Below, piece after piece: positions 4,530 to 49,199 of a stretch of 64,000 bases of DNA. Source of the stretch: Octopus vulgaris (lineage: Eukaryota); contig OX597815.1 of NCBI GenBank assembly GCA_951406725.2, positions 111,476,001 to 111,540,000 of the forward strand, written 5' to 3'. Numbering within the stretch: position 1 is the stretch's first letter; each line of letters opens with the position of its first letter. The position numbers and the translations under genes were made by a program. The notes under the pieces were generated by a model. The model saw only the letters and a list, made by a program, of their open reading frames with translations, did not search any database and had not been told where the DNA came from.

Positions 4530-5080
4530 CTATCCGCTCAGTCGAAGTCGACTCTCGGTTACTTCGTGTATAAGTGTTCTCTAGCCAGTTCTATCCTGGG
4601 TCACTTCTTTCAGATTGGCTATGGCCATTCTCGTGTCACGTTCAATAGTGTCAAGCCAGCGGTTTCTTGGTCGGCATCTTCCTCTTTGGCCACTGACCAT
4701 TCCGAGAATGTCCTTCTCCAGGGATTTTCTCCGCATATTATGACCAAAATATGCCAATCTATGCTTGGTGATCCTAGCTTCTAGCGACACTTTCAGCTTG
4801 ATCTGTTTAAGAACTTCTCCATTGGTGAGCCTCGCTGTCCATGGAATCCGCAAAAGTGTTCTCCAACACCAAAGTTCGAATGCATTAATTCTCTTCTGAT
4901 CATCTTTCTTTAGTTTCCAGGTCTCGCATCCATATGTTGCTATTTGGAAGACGATTGCATTCCCCAATCTGCATTTGGTAGCGAGGCTGATATCTCTACT
5001 CTTCCAGATCTTGCTTATACTGACCATTGCGTCTCTGCCTAGTACTATCCGCCGGTGTAGACTTTGTATTTCATCCTTTC
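4530..5080 (-). mobile_element. RTE-clade (BovB-like) LINE, 3' fragment
   Basis: ORF 4581-5180 has ATYGCETW, INAFELWCWRTLLRIPWTAR, LAYFGH and GQRGRCRPRNRWLD. The BovB-like 3' end runs into a (GATA) tail. Confidence 0.9.
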
Positions 5081-5983
5081 GGAGTTGATAAAACAAGTAC
5101 CATTTGAACACTGTTGGTCTGTTTAATCGAATTGCGCACTCCCATGAAAATGTTGGTCTTGTGCACAAATTTGGAATCAATACTATGCTATACGGAACTC
5201 CTAATTTTCATTTTTATTACACTACGAGAATCCAAAGCATTTCATTCCATTATTGGCAGGTACTACAATTCCTTGAATAAATGGACGATATATAATATCA
5301 GTCATCATTTCTACGCAACAGGGAAATCTTATTAAGTGCTGTAAAAGAAACGCGCTAATATTATTCAAAAGCAAAACTTACCTTACTTATTGCTGAATAC
5401 AAACACATACAGAGACATACACATTTACATACACATACAAACATAGCAAATTTAAATATTCCTCTGTACTGTGGACTAACAAAACAAACTGATGAACATA
5501 CATAATCCCTTCTCGAAACATTAGTTTCTCTTCAGGACTTCTGTGTCATTTGACCAAACCCATAGAAACATGTAACCAATTTTTTCGTATACACTTGAGA
5601 AATATAGACGTAACGAATACAGGGACGAATACAGGGACATAAATGCAGATATACATACGTTTATATTTATGCACACACACATACACACATGCATATAGAT
5701 ATATATATATAAAGACAATTATGCTGATGAAGAAATTAAATATAACTGATTGGGTTGGATATACTATGTGTGTGTATGTGTGAGTATGTGTGTGTGCGTG
5801 TGTGTGCGTGTGTGTGCGTGTTCGTGTGTGTTTAAACATACAGAAAAGAAAGACTGAATATTTTCAGATAAATGCATATGTAAGTATAAATATATAGATA
5901 TTTATAAATGAATAGAACAAAAATACACAGATAGAGAGACAGACAGACACACAGACAAACAGATAGAAAGACAAAGAGAGAGA

Positions 5984-16827: not shown

Positions 16828-17799
16828 ATACGTGAATGTAATTTATGCACGTCCACAAATTAGCATGCATATCGTTACAATTTTGGGAGGACATTCGTCA
16901 CCCCCTTAGCTCTATTTTCGTCTAATTATTTTTCCCGAGGCTCTCGCGGGTAGCGGTAAAAATCGATTTTCAACCTTAACTTTTACCAATTTTGGAGCTT
17001 GTTAACATGACTTATTTCCCTTCTTGCCATAGCGAAGTGAAAATATGTGTGTGTGTGTGTGTGTGTGAGGGAGAGAGAAGTTGTGTGTTGATGTATGTGT
17101 GTGTGTGTGAGGGAGACGGAAAGTGACAGCGTTCACCAAAAATAAAAATTTATTTTTTTTTAAACACGAGATATAGTATTCAAATTTAGGTTGTTTTTGA
17201 AAGGCAATATATTTTATAATCAGATTATATATACTTTCTCACACAACGATAAAACTATATTTATTTAAAATCATTTATTTATTTTAAATCGTTCATCTTT
17301 CTCCCCCTCTCTCACACATACACATTACTTTGGGCGCTAAAGAGTTTTGTTTTGATATTACGCCGAGGAAACACGTGTTTTGTTGAGAATCCATTCATTT
17401 AACAACATAGAAACAAAGATGTAGGTAACAATTTGTCAGTGAATTACAATATACATGGATAAAATTTACGAGGCTCCACCACACTCCACTCCGATTCTTG
17501 GACCACAAAAAGGGCTTTGTAGCATATTAGGAGCCCAGGGTAGTTGATTCCACGCAAAATATAGGATCTTTTATTCTTATGGAAAACCGTGCGAGTGTTA
17601 TCCAAAAATTTGCCTGGAGTTTTTCATGGTAAATTTTAGGTTTAAAAGAAAATGTTTTCCATATTCTTAATCGTATTTTTCCACGTACATTGAAAAATAG
17701 ATGTTGAAAAGATAAATGGGTATGGGGTTGGAATTTCCGATGTTTCCACCACACCACACCACACAACACCCCGTTTTTCGGACCACAAAAAGGGTTTGT

Positions 17800-18125
17800 A
17801 GTAACACATTGTCAATTGCCCTATCGTGTTTCTCAACTCATTGGAGCCAGGCTAAGGGTTGGATGCCCAATTATGCTAATCAGAAACTTACTTCCGCCTA
17901 AACAGTTCAAAGGGACCCGCTTAGTAATCAGTTCCCTGACGCCCCACTTGATTGAGGCCACCATTGTTACAGGGTGCGGGAGGGGTGAAAATGTTTTCAT
18001 TTCAAGGATGCAGCTTTATCCCTCGGGGACAGACATGCCGTTTAACTTCCGCAGATCGCTGTTCCCGGTGAGAGCATGCTTCGCTATGTCCATCAACAAA
18101 TCCCAAGGCCAAACACTAGCGGTGG
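17800..18125 (+). pseudogene. Helitron PIF1-like helicase C-terminal fragment
   Basis: LRVGCPIMLIRNL, GTRLVI and FPVRACFAMSINKSQGQTL motifs. Confidence 0.88.
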
Positions 18126-18639
18126 CATTTGGGGATTTCCTTTCAATCAGGATAAAAAATTGATAAACCGATTCCTTGTAGGATTTCCCACTAAAATTGG
18201 CTACACTCCATTGTCAAGCATAACTTTTGCCAATTTCCACACATTTTGCTCAAAATTGATACCAGCTTTACTTAGGATTCATGGGATCTCTGAATTCTTT
18301 AAGTTCTAAAAAAAAAAAAACAATCGATGAGTGGAAATTCATCGCCTGAAAATTACTCTATTTCTATGTGTATATGTATATATATTTTGTATATCAAACT
18401 CAAGCAATTTTATTTGCTTATTTGCATCATTTTCTCTCTCTCCCTTCCTTTCTTTCTTTCTCGTCGTGATATGTATATAAGTCACAATACAATTTAAAAT
18501 ACTTCGCAAGTATACATGATAGAATTGATCTATAAAAAGGATGAGAAAAAAGAATGACTTTTGTTTCTTTTATTCCTCCTGTTAATTTTCAACATGTTCA
18601 CCGTTATTAATACAAAAAGAAAAGCAATTCTACATTTCT

Positions 18640-22800: not shown

Positions 22801-22838
<38 letters not shown>

Positions 22839-22841
<3 letters not shown>

Positions 22842-23818
22842 GGGTTGATGGTGGAGGATATCGACTCTTTAATTGTTTTTCTAAAATACACCATAAATGT
22901 TCAATGATATTAAGATCTGGGTACTGTGGTGGCCAGATAAGATGTTCAACTTCAATAGAATGTTCCTTGTGCCATTCAGTAACAATTTTTGCTGTGTGAA
23001 TTGGTGCATTAACATCCTGAACGATTGCGTTTCCCACCGGAAACAGTTCCGCAACCATAGGATGAATTTGGTCAGGTAGAATGCTTAAATAGTCTTGACT
23101 ATTAATTCTGCAATGAAGGGAAACCATTCGACCGGCGGATTTCCAAGATATAGCGCCGCAGATCATCTCAGATTTTCATCCATGTCTAACAGTCGGAAGA
23201 AGGCCGTCTGGGTCAAATGCTTCTATTGGCTGTCTCCACACGTATATTCAGCCGGTGGTCGGAAATATAGTAAAGGATGACTCGTCCGAGAAAATAACAT
23301 TCTTCCGCTGCTCTAGGGACCAATTTTGTAGGTTTTTTACTCCACTAAAAACGCTTCGCAACGTTTGTTTTGAAAGTAGTGGTTTTCTGATTGCAGCCCT
23401 CCCATGACATCCGGCATTGTGCAACTCCTGGCGAATATTTTTTGCGGAAACTCCATTTTCGAGGAGATCATCAAGCTTCGCAGTAATTTTGGGAGCTGTA
23501 CTTTCGTGATCTTTTCTAACAAGAGGTTTTTCCCTCTTTCTCAAAGGCTGTCATTATTTTCGAGACAATACTTCTTAATACACCAAATATTTCGGCTGAT
23601 TGACTTCTTTGAAAGTCCGATTGATGTGTCATTTTAATAAATTTTAATGACTTTTTTCTGATATTTAGAAAGAAACAGCAATTTTAGCAAAACATTTTAA
23701 GGAACACTAATAATTAATCAAAAAACATAAATATAAACAAGCTTTTGGCGGTTTAATAGATATTTCAAAATTATGATGCTATGATGCTAGGTACTTCTAT
23801 TATGTTGTCCAGCCCCTG
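22839..23818 (-). mobile_element. Tc1-family transposon, decayed; one TIR reduced to about 10 bp
   Basis: Ends TA-CAGGGGTTG and CAGCCCCTG-TA. Minus-strand motifs: VIFSDESSF, QDVNAPIH, WPPQYPDLNIIEHLW. Confidence 0.88.
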
Positions 23819-31559: not shown

Positions 31560-32745
31560 CTTCATCGCGTGATACTACACTGGCGGATCACTTAAATTGC
31601 TCGGGATCTGGGTCGGTCCAAACCTTCAAATGGAGAAAAACTGGTATGAGATGACGAGCAGGGTGGTCACTCTCATCCAACTATGGACCGAGAGGAAGCT
31701 ACCTCTAAGAGGTCGGACTGAGGTGGCGAATGCGTACATCGCATCTGTCATCTACTACTGTCTGACCGTCGTGCCTTGCCTCGACCATACCATCAAGAAA
31801 ATTGAACGCATACCTTTCCGCTTTTTGCGGAGGGGAAGCGTTCCGATGGCTAGGCGATCCATTTGCTGTCATCATCCGCTAAATGCCGTGGTTGATGATG
31901 CGCAGACATCCGCTGAGACAGCGATATCGGCAGCGTTTCATAGACGGCGGTGAACAAGTGAGGTCGCCGTTTGTGAGACGCTCTTTTCCGCAGCTCGTCT
32001 TATTGACCGAACTGCAATCATGAATTAAGCAGAAACCGAGGATGGGCGAATGGCACCGTATGTGTCCCCATGCTGCCATGCAGCTCGGTTATCCGGGTTC
32101 AAACTGCTGTCATTTCAAGGCGTTCTATAGAGGACTAGTGGCGGGGAGGTGCGACGACGTTCTTGGGGAGACTCTGGGCGTCGACATGGAATACCTGACT
32201 CGCATCTTCAGGATCAGTTTCAGGCCAGGACCTGTGGCCTGTCAGTGCTATGAGGGAGCGTTGCCTGTTCGAGATAAGGTCTACAGACACGGGTCAAGAA
32301 ACACCGAACAAACTTGCTCTTGATGCAGTTAGAACGATGAAACCGTTCTGCCTGCACTCGTACAATGTTCAAATATTTTCTACATGTGGGCCTATGGATG
32401 AGTCCGGTTGTCAACCGAGTCTATCATAAACATTGCCTTGCCACCTTTCTTTAACGAGGAAGGCAAAGCAAATTTCAACGTACTGGTGGCTATGGCAAAG
32501 GAGTGTTTATGGTGGACTCATTTTAAAGGCTTAGAGACTAATACTTTCCTATCTGGCCAACCTGTTATCATCTGTTTCAAGTATTACTTGGAAAGACAGT
32601 TGAGAGTACAGAAGCTTGTTTTATTACCTTGTTGTCTCTTTGTGTTCACGTTCCAAAACGTTTCTGGTCCCGAATGATCGGGGGGAAATTCTATATTGTA
32701 TTGTCTCCTCTGTGTTCGGCTCTGCGTGGCTTAATAAAGAAATCA
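31560..32745 (+). mobile_element. L1/Tx1-clade LINE 3' fragment, decayed
   Basis: KLLGIW...WTERKLPLRGR...ANAYIAS..YY motif; degenerate CxxC...ET..C knuckle; AATAAA near 32733. Confidence 0.8.
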
Positions 32746-35283: not shown

Positions 35284-35360
35284 ATATATATATATATGTA
35301 TTTGTATACGAATAGATAGATAAATATATGCGTATATACCATATAATGCACATACAAATA

Positions 35361-37208
35361 CCGGCTGAGCTCTTGGCTCTTCGTTCCCTCCAACGGCGCG
35401 CTGACATTATCATCAAACCGGCTGACAAGGGTGGAGCTGTAGTGGTGTGGCGCGCGGACCTCTATAGGGCCGAGGCTTTCCGCCAACTCAATGACACCTC
35501 CTTCTATTCCCCTCTGCCCTCTAACCCCACACGTAGCTACCAACAGACGGTATCCTCTACTGTCCAAGACCTCATCTCGTCCTCCCGTCTCCCCCGCACC
35601 GCATCCAACCTAATTGTGCGAACCCCACGTACCCCCACCATTTACTTCCTCCCCAAAATCCACAAACCCAACAACCCTGGCCGCCCCATCGTCTCCGCCT
35701 GTAACTGCCCCACGGAGCTCATCTCTAAATACCTCGACCGTGTCCTTGCCCCCCTAGTGGCATCTCTTCCCTCCCACATCCACGATACCAACCATGCTCT
35801 CCGGCTTTTCAACTCTTTCTCCTTTCCTCCCGGCTCCTCCAAAATCCTTTTTACTATGGACATCCAAAGCCTCTATACTGTTATCCCTCACCACGAAGGA
35901 CTGCAGGCCCTTCGACACTTTCTTGACCTCCGCTCTAACCCTGTACCTGACACCTCCACACTCATTCGTCTGGCCGAACTTGTCCTTACTCTGAACTGCT
36001 TCTCGTTCGCGGGCGAGTTCTACCATCAGGTCTCGGGAGTGGCCATGGGAACGCGAATGGGCCCCAACTATGCGAACCTGTTCGTTGGCTATGTTGAGGC
36101 CCAAATATTCTCTAATTTCACTGGTCCCACTCCTGAACTATATGGTCGTTATATTGACGACATTATCGGTGCCACCTCACTCTCCCGCGAACATCTAGAT
36201 TCCTTCCTCTCTTTCGTCCAATCTTTCCATCCAGCCCTCCACTTCACTTCCACTATCTCCAACACCTCTGTCTCCTTCCTCGACATTTCGGTTAGCATTC
36301 TTCACTCCACTCTTACCACCTCCATTCACTACAAACACACAGACTCACACTCATACCTCAACTTCTCTTCCTCCCACCCAGAACACACCAAGCTTTCCAT
36401 CCCCTATTCCCAATTCCTCCGTCTACGTAGGCTCTGTAGTGACGACCATGACTTTGAGACTCAGTCTCAACGTATGGCTCACCACTTCACCCTACGTGGA
36501 TACCCCCTCACCACTATCCACACCGCCCTTGCCAGAGCACGGTCCGTGGACCGTGTATCTGCTCTCTCTCCCCGAACCCGCCCTGTAGTCTCCCGCCTCC
36601 CTTTTCCCCTCACTTACCACCCCACGACCCTACGTCTCCAACGCACCATTCTTCGAGCTTTCCGTCATCTCCAGTCCGACCCGTCCACTTCACACCTCTT
36701 CCCTAACCGACCCCTCCCCTCTTTCAAACGAGCCCACAACCTTCGAGACCTTTTGGTCCATAGCTCCTTCCCTGACCCTACCTCCCAACCCGGCTCGTTC
36801 CCCTGCTCCCGCCCACGTTGCCGCACTTGCCCTTACCTCTCCAACACCACCCGCCTCACTAGCACCCACCATCGACCCTATCCCATCATCCACTCCTTCA
36901 CCTGCACCTCCAGCAATATTATCTATTGCATCTCTTGCTCTCTCTGCAATTCCTTGTACATCGGACAAACGGGACGCCGCTTGGCTGACCGGTTCGCGGA
37001 ACACCTTCGTGACATCCACCTTGCGAACGACACACCGGTCTCACGCCATTTCCGCTCCACCGGTCACTCCTTGCAACACCTATCTGTGTTCGGTTTGTCC
37101 TTACACAGAGGCCATCCGGATTCCCGTTTGCGCCGTGAACAGGAATTAATCTTCTCTCTTCGCTCTTATACGCCATTTGGTCTCAACTCTCCCCCCCTCC
37201 TCATCTAA
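35361..37208 (+). CDS. Penelope-like retroelement (Neptune-type) RT + GIY-YIG endonuclease; 5'-truncated but uninterrupted
   Basis: RT motifs PADKGGAVVV, YFLPKIHKPNNPGRPIVS, MDIQSLYT, GVAMGTRMGP, RYIDD and FLDI; linker CSRPRCRTC; endonuclease NIIYCISC..C..LYIGQTGRRLADRFAEH...GLN. The ATG at 35328 lies in flanking microsatellite. Confidence 0.95.
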   Translation, partial: PAELLALRSLQRRADIIIKPADKGGAVVVWRADLYRAEAFRQLNDTSFYSPLPSNPTRSYQQTVSSTVQDLISSSRLPRTASNLIVRTPRTPTIYFLPKIHKPNNPGRPIVSACNCPTELISKYLDRVLAPLVASLPSHIHDTNHALRLFNSFSFPPGSSKILFTMDIQSLYTVIPHHEGLQALRHFLDLRSNPVPDTSTLIRLAELVLTLNCFSFAGEFYHQVSGVAMGTRMGPNYANLFVGYVEAQIFSNFTGPTPELYGRYIDDIIGATSLSREHLDSFLSFVQSFHPALHFTSTISNTSVSFLDISVSILHSTLTTSIHYKHTDSHSYLNFSSSHPEHTKLSIPYSQFLRLRRLCSDDHDFETQSQRMAHHFTLRGYPLTTIHTALARARSVDRVSALSPRTRPVVSRLPFPLTYHPTTLRLQRTILRAFRHLQSDPSTSHLFPNRPLPSFKRAHNLRDLLVHSSFPDPTSQPGSFPCSRPRCRTCPYLSNTTRLTSTHHRPYPIIHSFTCTSSNIIYCISCSLCNSLYIGQTGRRLADRFAEHLRDIHLANDTPVSRHFRSTGHSLQHLSVFGLSLHRGHPDSRLRREQELIFSLRSYTPFGLNSPPLLI

Positions 37209-38197
37209 CCCCCCTCTCCCCCCTCCTCGCCTATCCTTTCTCCCCCCGACCCCTACTTCTTCAGTCCTTCATCCTTTCACCCCTACTCCCCTTCCCTTCT
37301 TCCCTCTTTCTCCCTCCCTCTTCCCCTTCCCTCTGCTCCCTCACTCCCTCTCTCCCCTTCTCTCTCCCCTTCTCTCTCCCCCTCTCCCTCTTTCCTCCTT
37401 CATCCCCCTCATCCCCTTCCTTCTCCCCCATCCTCTCCTCTCCCCCTTCTCATCCCCCTCTTCTTCCCCTCCCCTTATCTCCCCCTCTTCTCCCCCCTCC
37501 CCCTCTTCTCCTCACTACACCACATGACTTTACACATCACATCACATATGATGTGCCATACTAATACACACACCAACTAATACATACTAATACGTACTAA
37601 TACATACTAGTACATACTAATACTTACACCAACCCTATACATACACACGTCCAGACCCCGCATACGCACTTATACTCTCTCTCTCACACACACACACACC
37701 TATACATACCAATACGTACTAATACATACTAATACATACTAATACATACACCAACCCCATACATACGCACGTCCAGACCAATCTTACGCACTAATACTCT
37801 CTCATACACACACACACACACACACCCTTATACATACTAATACATACACCAACCCTATACATACACACATCCAGACCCCTCCCACGCACTTTTAGCTGGT
37901 CCCTCAACCCATTTATCAACCCTATTATCTCCCCTTATTTCGCTCTCGCGTCTCATGTTTGATCTTTGACCTCTGGCCGAAATCAGATCGCCATGTTGAT
38001 TCGTTAGCTACTGCACGCATTTTTTTTCTCTCCTTCTTTCTGTGTTTTTCTCTCTCTGTGTATCTTTCTGTTGAAGAGCGTAGGCTCGAAACGTTAAAGA
38101 CTTGTTTTATTTATATTTCCTGAGCGCCATACTAATACAATTGTTCGTTTGTTTTCCACCTGCCTTCGTCTTTTGTTTATTTTCATAAAGCTTCCCG
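37209..38197 (+). mobile_element. 3' UTR/pLTR of the Penelope element: polypyrimidine tract, ~100-bp subrepeats, hammerhead-like terminal region, then (TA)n
   Basis: C/T-rich 37209-37520; repeated tacatactaatacatacaccaaccc..gtccagacc blocks at 37560-37890; a related terminal segment is repeated at 38245-38423. Confidence 0.8.
38063..38100 (+). ncRNA. Minimal hammerhead with variant core (second copy at 38296-38333)
   Basis: tcttt CTGTTGA-A gagc-gtag-gctc GAAA cg TT aaaga. Confidence 0.6.
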
Positions 38198-38426
38198 TTA
38201 TATATATATATATATATATATGTCTGTATGTATATATATATATGATAGATCGTTAGCCACTACACACCTTTTTTCTCTCCTTGTTTTTTCTGTGTCCCTT
38301 CTGTAGAAGAGCGTAGGCTCGAAGCGTAAAATACTTTTTCTATTCCTGAGCGTTATACTAATACATCTGTTTGTTTTATACACCACCTGTCTTCGTCTTT
38401 TGTTTTTTTCGTAAACTCTCCCTATA

Positions 38427-41916: not shown

Positions 41917-41973
<57 letters not shown>

Positions 41974-41975
<2 letters not shown>

Positions 41976-43120
41976 ATTTCTTCTGATTTAGATTTGAAAA
42001 TACTAAGAATCAAACATACCCGTCCGATATCTGTAACATCGGACAAACCATGCCAGACACCCAGTACTAGCGAATCCAAAAATACGAATGAGATCTATTA
42101 TTCTCCCTGTCCACCCACGTGAGTCATAGAGCATTACATTTCTACAGAGGTAAAAACTGCAGTTCAAATTCTTAGAGATAAAGCATTATATTGTCATCAT
42201 AAAGTGGGGTAGAATTAATTAATTGTTAATAAATTCTACCAAGCAGTATTCGGTATGTAAAGCCCATTTACGGTATATTTGAAGTATTAACTTATAAAAA
42301 TATGGTAAAGTAAAAAAATTCACTTTACCACATACCGAACTTTTCAGAAATAGCAGCCAAAAATTTGGCTATTTCTTCAACTGCAAATAAAAGTCTCCAG
42401 ACAATGCATACTCAGAAAATAACTCACATAGGTATAAGGGAAAAAACAATGAAAGATCACATCCATATACGATACCCGAGGACAGTCTGTTTCTGGATTT
42501 GTGGGTAAAACGCCACTTTTCCTTCATCAGCTCAGAGCAGTATTCGGTATGTATACCGAATACTGCTTGGTAGAATTTATTAACAATTAATTAATACCGA
42601 ATACTGCTTGGTAGAATTTATTAACAATTAATTAATTCTACCCCCCTTTATGATGACAATATAATGCTTTATCTCCAAGAATTTGAACTGCAGTTTTTAC
42701 CTCTGTAGAAATGTAATGCTCTATGATTCACGTGGGTGGACAGGGAGAATAATAGATCTCATTCGTATTTTTGGATTCGCTAGTACTGGGTGTCTGGCAT
42801 GGTTTGTCCGATGTTACAGATATCGGACGGGTATGTTTGATTCTTAGTATTTTCAAATCTAAATCAGAAGAAATCTCTGAGCTGATGAAGGAAAAGTGGC
42901 GTTTTACCCACAAATCCAGAAACAGACTGTCCTCGGGTATCGTATATGGATGTGATCTTTCATTGTTTTTTCCCTTATACCTATGTGAGTTATTTTCTGA
43001 GTATGCATTGTCTGGAGACTTTTATTTGCAGTTGAAGAAATAACCAAATTTTTGGCTGCTATTTCTGAAAAGTTCGGTGTGTGGTAAAGTGAATTTTTTT
43101 ACTTTACCATATTTTTATAA

Positions 43121-43121
<1 letters not shown>
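41974..43121. mobile_element. Inverted pair of circularly permuted ~562-nt hammerhead monomers in (TA)n
   Basis: Minus monomer 41974-42535. The plus copy (42554-43121) has the same sequence opened at a different point. Confidence 0.9.
42877..42936 (+). ncRNA. Type I hammerhead ribozyme (identical minus-strand copy at 42476-42535)
   Basis: ctgag CTGATGA a-gga-aaa-gtgg..ccac-aaa-tcc-a GAAA cag-a-ctg TC ctcgg; GUC triplet, predicted cleavage after 42931. Confidence 0.88.
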
Positions 43122-43190
<69 letters not shown>

Positions 43191-47124: not shown

Positions 47125-48750
47125 AATACAGATATATGCACTTTGTATATATAAAGATTATTATATATACATATTTATATATAGATACACAAACACATAT
47201 ATAAATTAACCCAATAAATATCTGATTCATAATATTTGTTGTCATGATTGAGTGGTGGTTGTGGCGATGATAATTCTCTCTATGAATGCAGACAGACGTG
47301 GAGAGTGAGAGTGTGTGAAAGCGCTGTGGAAGGCAGGGAGGGGGATAACGGACGCTGTGAAACGACGTTATAAAGAGAAAGTGAATGTAAGGGAGGTAGA
47401 CGCTGTGAAACGACGTTATAGATAGAAAGTGAAAGGAAGGGAGAAAAGTGAGTGAGTGATGGAGGAAGACAGATACATAAAAGAATGAGAGTGTTGGATG
47501 TTTTGTTTGTTGGACCAATGAATTAAGGTAGTATTGTTTTATTGTTTTAAAACGAAAGAGGCAATGTGTTTGTTTCAAAAATTGAAAAATCTGTTATAGT
47601 GAATGAAATTAGAATTCACACCCAGCTCAGTTTTGTAGAAAGAGTATCACGATGTGAACTCATGAGTTGGGAGTTTGACTGAGAGAGTTTATATGGTGAC
47701 ACATGCCAGTCCTTTCGACACCACCTAAACAATGGAATAGTGTATAAAATGTAATTAACAACTCATTCACTTTATGAATGTCTTATGTTAGCGAAGAAAC
47801 AATAACTTGACAAAACCGTTTAATGGAGACGTAGAAGGAATCGGAAAATGAGGAATAAAGAGAATGAGTTGGATCAAATGTTTGCAAACATCTGAACCCA
47901 ATGTTCTTTATGAACCATGTTCTTTTTAATGTCTTTATTTTCAAGAATGAAGAGATAATGAAGAGGTGCAAAATAAAAAATCAAGCAAAATTTCATGACT
48001 TACAATCAGTTTTCTTTTTTCAGAGCCTCCTGATAAACCACGTTCCTTGTGCGCTCATGATTACTAAGAATGAAGAGTTTATGTGGATTTCCAACTCGAG
48101 AACAGGCTACGTACAATTGACCATGACTGAAAACCGGTTGTGACAGGTTAATGCCTACAATGTCCAGTGATTGTCCCTGTGACTTGTTGATTGTCATCGC
48201 GAAGCATAGTTTTATTGGAAATTGAAAGCGTTTAAACTGAATGGGAACATCAGAGGGTGAAATACTCATTTTATGTATCATTTTGATTGTTCCTACAAAT
48301 GGTCCACTCAAAATTTCAGCAGTTATAACATGGCTTTGAATCCTCCTAATAACCATTCGGGTTCCATTGCATATTTCAGGCGTTTCCATATTTCTGAGCA
48401 CCATGATTGGAGCACCAACTTTCAAACACAAATGATGAGGTGGAAGTCCCGGAGGTGTTAGCTTGTTGAGTAGCTCGGGTGGATATTTGACTGCATCATT
48501 CTCATATTTATTTGTATCGATGGACATGAAAGAAACTATCTCACCAGGATTCATATCAAGTACTTGTTTATTTGTAGCCTCAGCGGTTGTATTATGAGGC
48601 GATAGAATAGCTCTTGCTCTTAGCCAATCGAGATCCTGGAAGTTGGTTTCGACGTCAGGTAAAACGGCTCTTATAAGTTCTTCTACATTTGGAACGAAAT
48701 TCCCAAAAGGCAACCGAATATGCTCATCATCAACGAAAGGCAAAACTCCA
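47024..48750 (-). mobile_element. Helitron 3' portion
   Basis: Minus strand ends ACCCGC-gcgtaga-GCGGGT..CTAG|T at 47024 and contains the helicase C-terminus. Confidence 0.88.
48006..48743 (-). pseudogene. Helitron RepHel PIF1-like helicase C-terminal fragment (open, 245 aa)
   Basis: RAILSPHN, PPGLPPHHLCLKVGAPIMVLRN, FPIKLCFAMTINKSQGQSL, VFSHGQLYVACSRV, TRNVVYQE. Confidence 0.93.
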
Positions 48751-49199
48751 TGAAATCATTCTAATTAAGCTTCTGATTGAATATTTTGTGGGTGAAATTT
48801 GAGAGACGGAAGTGTTGCGTATTCTAATGTTTTAAGCATGGTATGCAGAGAGAGGATAATATTAAACTAAGGGGTTTATATACGAGTAACAAAATAACCT
48901 GCAGGAGAAGCGGGTATGATTTACTGGATACATAAGCGATATTAATGAAGATAGTACGTTTAAAAACTACAGAAGTAAGCTACTGGTGAGATATAATTCA
49001 ATAAAAGGATATTAAAATTTGTTGTAATTACCCTGCAATTTTTTCAATCATTTGAAATGCGATCATGTTGGGACACTGTCTCGAGGGATTTAATCGGGCG
49101 AATCAACCTCAGTATTGTTACTAATTCTACTGGTTTCTCTTGCCGAGCCACTAAATCTACGTCAGCGTAAACAGAGACCGGTTGTCAAGTGTTGTGGAG

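Follow-up and report, generated by a model that had tools for sequence, protein, structure and literature searches.

The locus described here, a young copy of a non-coding repeat of 562 bases, lies as two back-to-back arms inside a TA microsatellite. Positions are those of the window, by which we mean the whole 64,000-nucleotide stretch of DNA analysed, and positions within the unit are counted from the predicted hammerhead cut, with position 1 at window position 42932. The features of the locus are listed below, with the basis for each in brackets.

41919–41973, no strand: (TA)n target microsatellite, left side (sequence)
41974–42535, minus strand: left arm, one full 562-nt unit, unit 508–562 followed by 1–507 (doubled-unit alignment, end mapping)
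42475–42537, minus strand: left-arm type I hammerhead motif, with the predicted cut falling between 42481 and 42480 (identical to the right-arm motif)
42249–42356, minus strand: family-wide core, comprising the CTGCTATTTCT motif and the helix TTCGGTATG/CATACCGAA around the putative main priming site at 186–212 (pattern matches, kept helix)
42536–42553, minus strand: 18-nt putative template-switch piece, unit 222–239, forming the left half of the junction hairpin (exact match)
42553–42593, plus strand: 41-nt duplication of unit 225–265, a stretch apparently copied twice (exact duplicate)
42594–43123, plus strand: right arm, 530 nt, unit 225–562 followed by 1–192, its outer end at the family's putative main priming site (alignment)
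42876–42937, plus strand: type I hammerhead motif of the right arm, predicted cut after GTC at 42931 (sequence, sister families)
43124–43178, no strand: (TA)n target microsatellite, right side (sequence)

Read as its reverse complement, from 42535 to 41974, the left arm is exactly 562 nt long, starting CTGAG-CTGATGA and finishing AGAAGAAATCT. This bears out the original prediction of a minus-strand monomer of about 562 nt with these ends, and the ends are also contiguous in the plus-strand copy, as had been claimed, with AGAAATCT meeting CTGAG at 42876/42877 in the doubled-unit alignment. The right arm had been taken for an inverted copy of the same monomer. It is indeed permuted and 98.5% identical to the doubled left-arm unit over 538 columns (7 mismatches and 1 gap, ragged ends counted), but it is not a full unit, holding 530 of the 562 nt and lacking 193–224. 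The similarity of the arms greatly exceeds what chance would give (blastn E 0.0 to 1e-126), the two arms differing at 5 of 508 trimmed positions, and the left-arm match reaches 564 nt, of which 2 nt (AG) are common to the junction piece. The outer end of the left arm, at unit position 507, is an atypical priming site, and that of the right arm is at 192. An ORF check found no coding frame of at least 120 aa within the element, which has no LTR and whose ends adjoin (TA)n.

A type I hammerhead motif is present in the unit and is predicted, from its sequence, to be self-cutting. In the right arm this motif (42876–42937) comprises stem I (TCTGAG/CTCGGG), CTGATGA, GAAA and then GTC, and the predicted cleavage site falls after 42931, where it had been placed. 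Stem III is short and near-palindromic (CAGACTG), and the base of stem II is an A-A mismatch, not the canonical G-C pair. No match was obtained for the window in Rfam at the gathering score, so the assignment rests on manual reading; in sister families the hammerhead core is kept and stems II and III are changed. A 70-nt cut folds into stems I and II only, with stem III not formed in the monomer, and folding 42860–42960 alone did not yield the hammerhead (z +0.91). Short palindromic stems III have been described as working in dimers (PMC4209133).

A DNA search for the family gave at least 102 matches, with 40 of 1016 candidates scored, and an exact 32-mer of the hammerhead motif matched the genome 160 times against 0 for a control. 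The analysis of ends covers the 71 loci behind the first 100 of these 160 matches, and 12 further loci from the DNA search were added for the allele and pairing tests. The family forms head-to-tail arrays with a 562-nt period, up to about 3.6 units long and dispersed on many chromosomes, and nearly all of its insertions lie within (TA)n or similar AT repeats. Among the matches listed, 38 of the 71 loci are inverted head-to-head and 33 are simple.

The original prediction implied that the ends of genomic copies, plotted around the unit, would be found at varying rather than fixed points. Only the inner ends behave in this way. For the 71 loci among the matches listed, the outer ends are clustered round the unit (Rayleigh p 8e-25, 109 ends) and largely fixed, with 62 of 109 at 186–212, 20 at 270–297 and 5 at 250–254, whereas the 109 inner ends are scattered near uniformly (Rayleigh p 0.085). 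Arms longer than 600 nt make up 32 of 109 among the matches listed. The arm lengths show no peak at one unit, those of 550–580 nt numbering 6 of 109 against 4.0 expected (p 0.25), and the exact monomer at the studied locus, which had been offered as a clue to its origin, is therefore not evidence by itself.

The outer ends are also paired. At 21 of 44 inverted loci both fall in the preferred classes, and 19 of these loci combine one end at 186–212 with one at 250–297, a class defined after seeing the data, the other two pairing two 186–212 ends (p 9e-5). In the remaining 23 inverted loci, the one studied here (192 and 507) among them, one or both ends are atypical. In sister family B, which has a 563-nt unit, both classes are paired in 17 of 19 inverted loci (17 of 17 with canonical ends) with no like-with-like pair, in a sample of 24 loci that were top matches and are biased toward long arrays. 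Inverted-arm arrays of the 563-nt family reach 8.9 + 3.8 units (L113 at G000:C6:6072000-6081900, L114, L116 and L117). The core pattern has 10,451 matches in the genome, in tandem and inverted units of about 550–620 nt, and these mark many related families that have in common the core motif, its enclosing helix and a pair of AT-rich ends.

These regularities bear on whether the inversion and permutation could have arisen at the DNA level after a simple insertion, by fold-back repair, recombination between tandem units or gene conversion between arms, or could reflect an assembly error. AT-rich palindromes are unstable, which speaks for a DNA-level origin, as do the hairpin at the junction and the near identity of the arms. 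However, 38 of 71 loci are inverted with the same polarity, their outer ends lie at (TA)n with the preferred ends paired, and the arms are differently permuted and not mirror images; nor would differences at 5 of 508 positions be expected of an assembly duplication. We consider an origin of this kind extremely unlikely.

It is also very unlikely that the templates were cleaved linear monomers, with the enzyme jumping end to end on the same or a sister molecule to build head-to-tail arrays. End-to-end jumping is known for some reverse transcriptases, and template jumps are visible at this and other junctions, both of which would favour this route. Against it, the expected C precedes all 175 copies of unit positions 1–23 in a collection unbiased with respect to the motif, another base being found in 0 of 175, which argues that cleaved linear monomers were not the usual template. 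Inner ends within 5 nt of the cut number 0 of 109, in a set that requires the motif and so under-samples such ends, and no haplotype switch occurs between laps. Six loci from the 175-copy list have ends at various places, and one fragment (L186) starts 2 nt from the cut site.

Variation within loci is informative about the number of templates involved. Successive laps differ at 63 of 13,411 positions (0.47%) and the two arms of a locus at 112 of 15,552 (0.72%), or 61 of 13,477 (0.45%) without L033, in which a short piece aligns badly; random pairs of loci are 2.08% apart. Where an allele occurs in at least three loci, it is fixed within the locus in 168 cases and mixed in 10, in counts that leave out the homopolymer at 274–278 and the L033 piece. 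At 12 of 57 loci all copies carry the same private alleles, 15 in total, 11 of them on both arms, and 86 private alleles are mixed; the studied locus has one private allele, at position 244, on both arms. Family B gives 51 fixed and 8 mixed alleles, with private alleles on 12/12 and 9/9 copies across both arms. These data suggest that both arms and all laps of a locus were likely copied from one template, and because they share one haplotype, private alleles included, a single circular monomer is the simplest explanation. RNA editing fixed in the template was considered and rejected, A>G accounting for 5 of 34 fixed private changes and 21 of 163 segregating ones (p 0.78). Candidates for a parent-daughter trace, in which an allele mixed in one array is fixed in others, exist and look like recurrent mutation.

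A further alternative, which we regard as possible but rather unlikely, retains the same element and double priming but takes as template an uncleaved linear multimer from a homogeneous array, with a minor role for the hammerhead and no circle. Arrays of 3–9 units exist, and such a template would explain why copies run through the cut site, why their ends are permuted and why arms can exceed one unit; moreover, hammerhead mutants of a Penelope-like element (PLE) still insert in vitro in the experiments described in PMC11167929. Two family B arrays (L114 and L117) show a two-unit duplication that followed insertion, so arrays can homogenise after insertion, and source arrays may be missing from the sample. 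However, mutations of individual source units would be expected in one daughter lap, and shared alleles are instead fixed in the ratio of 168 to 10 given above, while private alleles cover every copy on both arms. Twin priming on one linear RNA would also place the stop of one arm at the other's start, yet the two lie within 30 nt of each other in 9 of 88 cases, with 9.6 expected. The proposal that the template was circular or multimeric is supported genome-wide by the tandem arrays, the 32 of 109 arms above 600 nt, the scattered inner ends, the lack of any break at the cut in 175 copies and the single haplotype per locus. Between a circle and a linear multimer, we lean towards a circular template.

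Folded as a circle, the unit reaches −175.8 kcal/mol (z −7.7 against 30 shuffles), with long stems that would also form in a multimer. For L094, runs X4 and X6 (one study, guessed to be RNA) each gave a single closed contig of 597 nt, one unit with an overlap, which tandem DNA or multimeric RNA would equally yield. The X4 and X6 contigs have the same subfamily haplotype, with a 5–6 nt insertion near 276, which suggests one dominant source if these runs are RNA. In a fourth run, of unknown kind, the unit was broken into many pieces. Run X7 gave one depth-3 contig over window positions 42758–42927 with about a dozen A>G changes, such as hyper-editing of double-stranded RNA would give, although they may be error or another allele. 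Inverted loci would be predicted to make long hairpins.

The junction between the arms offers a more detailed view of how copying may have ended. The 41-nt direct duplication reported there is exact (42553–42593 repeats as 42594–42634), and the hairpin is real, with arms at 42536–42550 and 42553–42567 and a stability of −14.3 kcal/mol as DNA. The 18-nt piece is an antisense copy of unit 222–239, overlapping the left arm by 2 nt and the right side, where the 41-nt duplicate lies, by 1 nt; the AG shared with the left arm also corresponds to unit positions 506–507. It had been suggested that the reverse transcriptase switched template or snapped back at this point. Template switching is supported, but plain snap-back of the right cDNA fits less well, because the piece includes 222–224, which are missing from the right arm, and we read it as a probable jump of the left cDNA. 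Copying of the right arm appears to have ended at 225 twice, at the edge of a 9-bp helix (142–150/224–232) that is kept in 11 related units, with only 1 of its 9 pairs changed on both sides. That both cDNAs would end at 222–225 fits one shared template, albeit in a single case; inner ends of the two arms lie at most 40 nt apart at 10 of 44 loci (6.3 expected), which gives no clear signal. The inversion is best read as two separately primed arms and not as one strand turning back.

Inverted arms also arise in L1 twin priming, where both target strands prime, as we propose for the 562-nt family. The arms produced by L1 are adjacent, non-overlapping parts of one linear RNA, whereas those described here overlap in unit coordinates, and adjacency of the L1 type is at the chance level already given (9/88 vs 9.6 expected).

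The family shows the signature of PLE insertion, namely two internal start sites, an inverted 5'-truncated arm and an AT-rich target. A Penelope-like enzyme has been reported to cut and extend both strands of AT-rich DNA in vitro and to use two internal starts that delimit the genomic tail (PMC11167929), and inverted and tandem copies, tails and a (TA)n bias are described as PLE traits (PMC8557442). From this in vitro behaviour and these insertion traits, taken with the paired outer ends, we infer double target priming by a PLE enzyme. The element is very likely a retrozyme inserted by double priming of the PLE type, and the mobilising enzyme probably belongs to the Neptune clade. Taking the evidence as a whole, we think it probable that the locus is a single insertion of a non-autonomous retrozyme, made by a Penelope-type enzyme that primed on both target strands and copied one RNA, itself probably circular.

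Such an insertion might proceed as follows. An array would be transcribed, and its hammerheads, perhaps as dimers, would cut out monomers to be closed by a host ligase. The enzyme would bind the conserved structured domain (unit ~125–295) and nick both strands of a (TA)n run, with each nick priming a cDNA, usually one at 186–212 and one at 250–297. At the studied locus priming would have taken place at 192 for the right arm and at 507, an atypical site, for the left, both cDNAs then passing through the ligated cut site. The right cDNA would have halted at 225, slipped back by 41 nt and halted there once more, and the left cDNA would have jumped via the 2-nt overlap to 239 and copied to 222. 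The cDNA ends may then have been joined over 1 nt, with repair filling in the remainder. We are slightly inclined to go further and suggest that two Penelope-type enzymes produce each insertion of the family in a single reaction, running round one circular RNA from two fixed starts, and that the core motif denotes a large superfamily of 550–620-nt circles with a binding domain showing no detectable similarity to the PLE ends examined. If this is the case, the genome would preserve a record of the rolling-circle route long proposed for animal retrozymes and as yet unshown.

The family belongs to a known class, the metazoan non-LTR retrozymes, and does not represent a new system. Descriptions of animal non-LTR retrozymes and of their circles, together with the proposal that PLEs drive rolling-circle copying, are given in PMC7229834, PMC4209133 and 10.64898/2026.07.22.740005. 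As set out in the first and last of these, the class resembles our family in its tandem unit, which is non-coding and AT-rich and has one type I hammerhead, in a stem III that is short and near-palindromic, in a predicted circle that is highly self-paired and in coexisting with PLEs; the axolotl HHR_Amex2 is described with a mismatched stem II base, which the 562-nt unit has too. At 562 nt the unit is larger than the 170–400 nt given for the invertebrate retrozymes of 2020 (PMC7229834), but lies inside the 51–972 nt range of the 2026 preprint (10.64898/2026.07.22.740005). Set against the retrozyme descriptions available to us, (TA)n targeting, head-to-head arms and paired priming sites feature only in that of the 562-nt family, for which no pLTR homology was found and whose circle and cleavage are predicted from sequence. 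In the part of the literature covered, we saw neither paired start sites nor single-haplotype arms described for retrozymes. Two published findings count against our reading: of 9 Xenopus retrozyme dimers, only 1 is reported to be cleaved (10.64898/2026.07.22.740005), and uncleaved RNA is given as the main substrate of a PLE in vitro (PMC11167929).

The EN+ PLEs Neptune, Naiad and Poseidon, as described in PMC8557442, PMC11167929 and PMC4209133, are likewise similar in their partial tandems, inverted 5'-truncated copies and microsatellite targets, and in having two internal initiation sites, a tail at one end and a hammerhead in the repeat. Compared with those accounts, the 562-nt family has no ORF, its tail is ~60–100 nt instead of 30–40, and its unit is a free repeat and not the pLTR of any PLE examined. 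The PLE route to tandem and inverted insertions and the use of retrozyme circles as templates are stated to be open questions in PMC8557442, PMC7229834 and PMC11167929. The family makes testable predictions on these points, namely that each target strand makes use of one of two start sites, that an insertion has a single haplotype and that copying runs through the ribozyme junction. If the circles are confirmed, in vitro studies of a (TA)n-targeting enzyme would also gain a natural template of 562 nt.

Having no ORF with RT and GIY-YIG, the element is not itself an autonomous PLE. Two young Neptune-like families (20 and 29 loci, with 1.5 kb flanks and one 3' end of each in full) and the single locus of a third included no autonomous element sharing the unit sequence, and the 68 stretches (30 + 38) inspected around core-motif matches contained no linked PLE ORF. 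Three candidate partners were rejected: a PLE 4.3 kb from the core motif in L234 is a separate insertion, and neither the Neptune-like ORF at 35316–37208 of the window nor an AT-rich Neptune-like family with 781-aa frames has sequence in common with the unit. The genome does contain at least two young Neptune-like families with intact ORFs ending in (TA)n.

The ORF at 35316–37208 has an RT domain and a CX4CXXC linker, which is Neptune-type (PMC8557442), and its 3' side runs into (TA)n; among the copies of its family that were scored, 70 of 70 are 99–100% identical. Truncated at its 5' end, the surrounding sequence (35316–38200) is one copy of a Neptune-like PLE (RT, GIY-YIG) that is very young and high in copy number, many copies of which have longer open frames. 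Its 3' end has a minimal hammerhead-like motif (~38060–38100) and adjoins (TA)n, and a short related element follows at ~38225–38425. Further Neptune-like families with 781–785 aa frames ending in (TA)n are represented by L193, L259, L260 and L234; their 3' motifs are hammerhead-like, and the 3' region has CCAAT/TGACGT-rich repeats. Elsewhere in the window, fragments resembling, by eye, remnants of RTE/L1-type LINEs and Tc1-type transposases lie at 4581–5207 (minus), 31573–31953 (plus) and 22804–23175 (minus), the one of these fragments searched having no match in Pfam. Pif1-type helicase fragments lie at 48006–48755 (minus; Pfam Pif1_2B) and 17708–18163 (plus), and are likely Helitron remnants.
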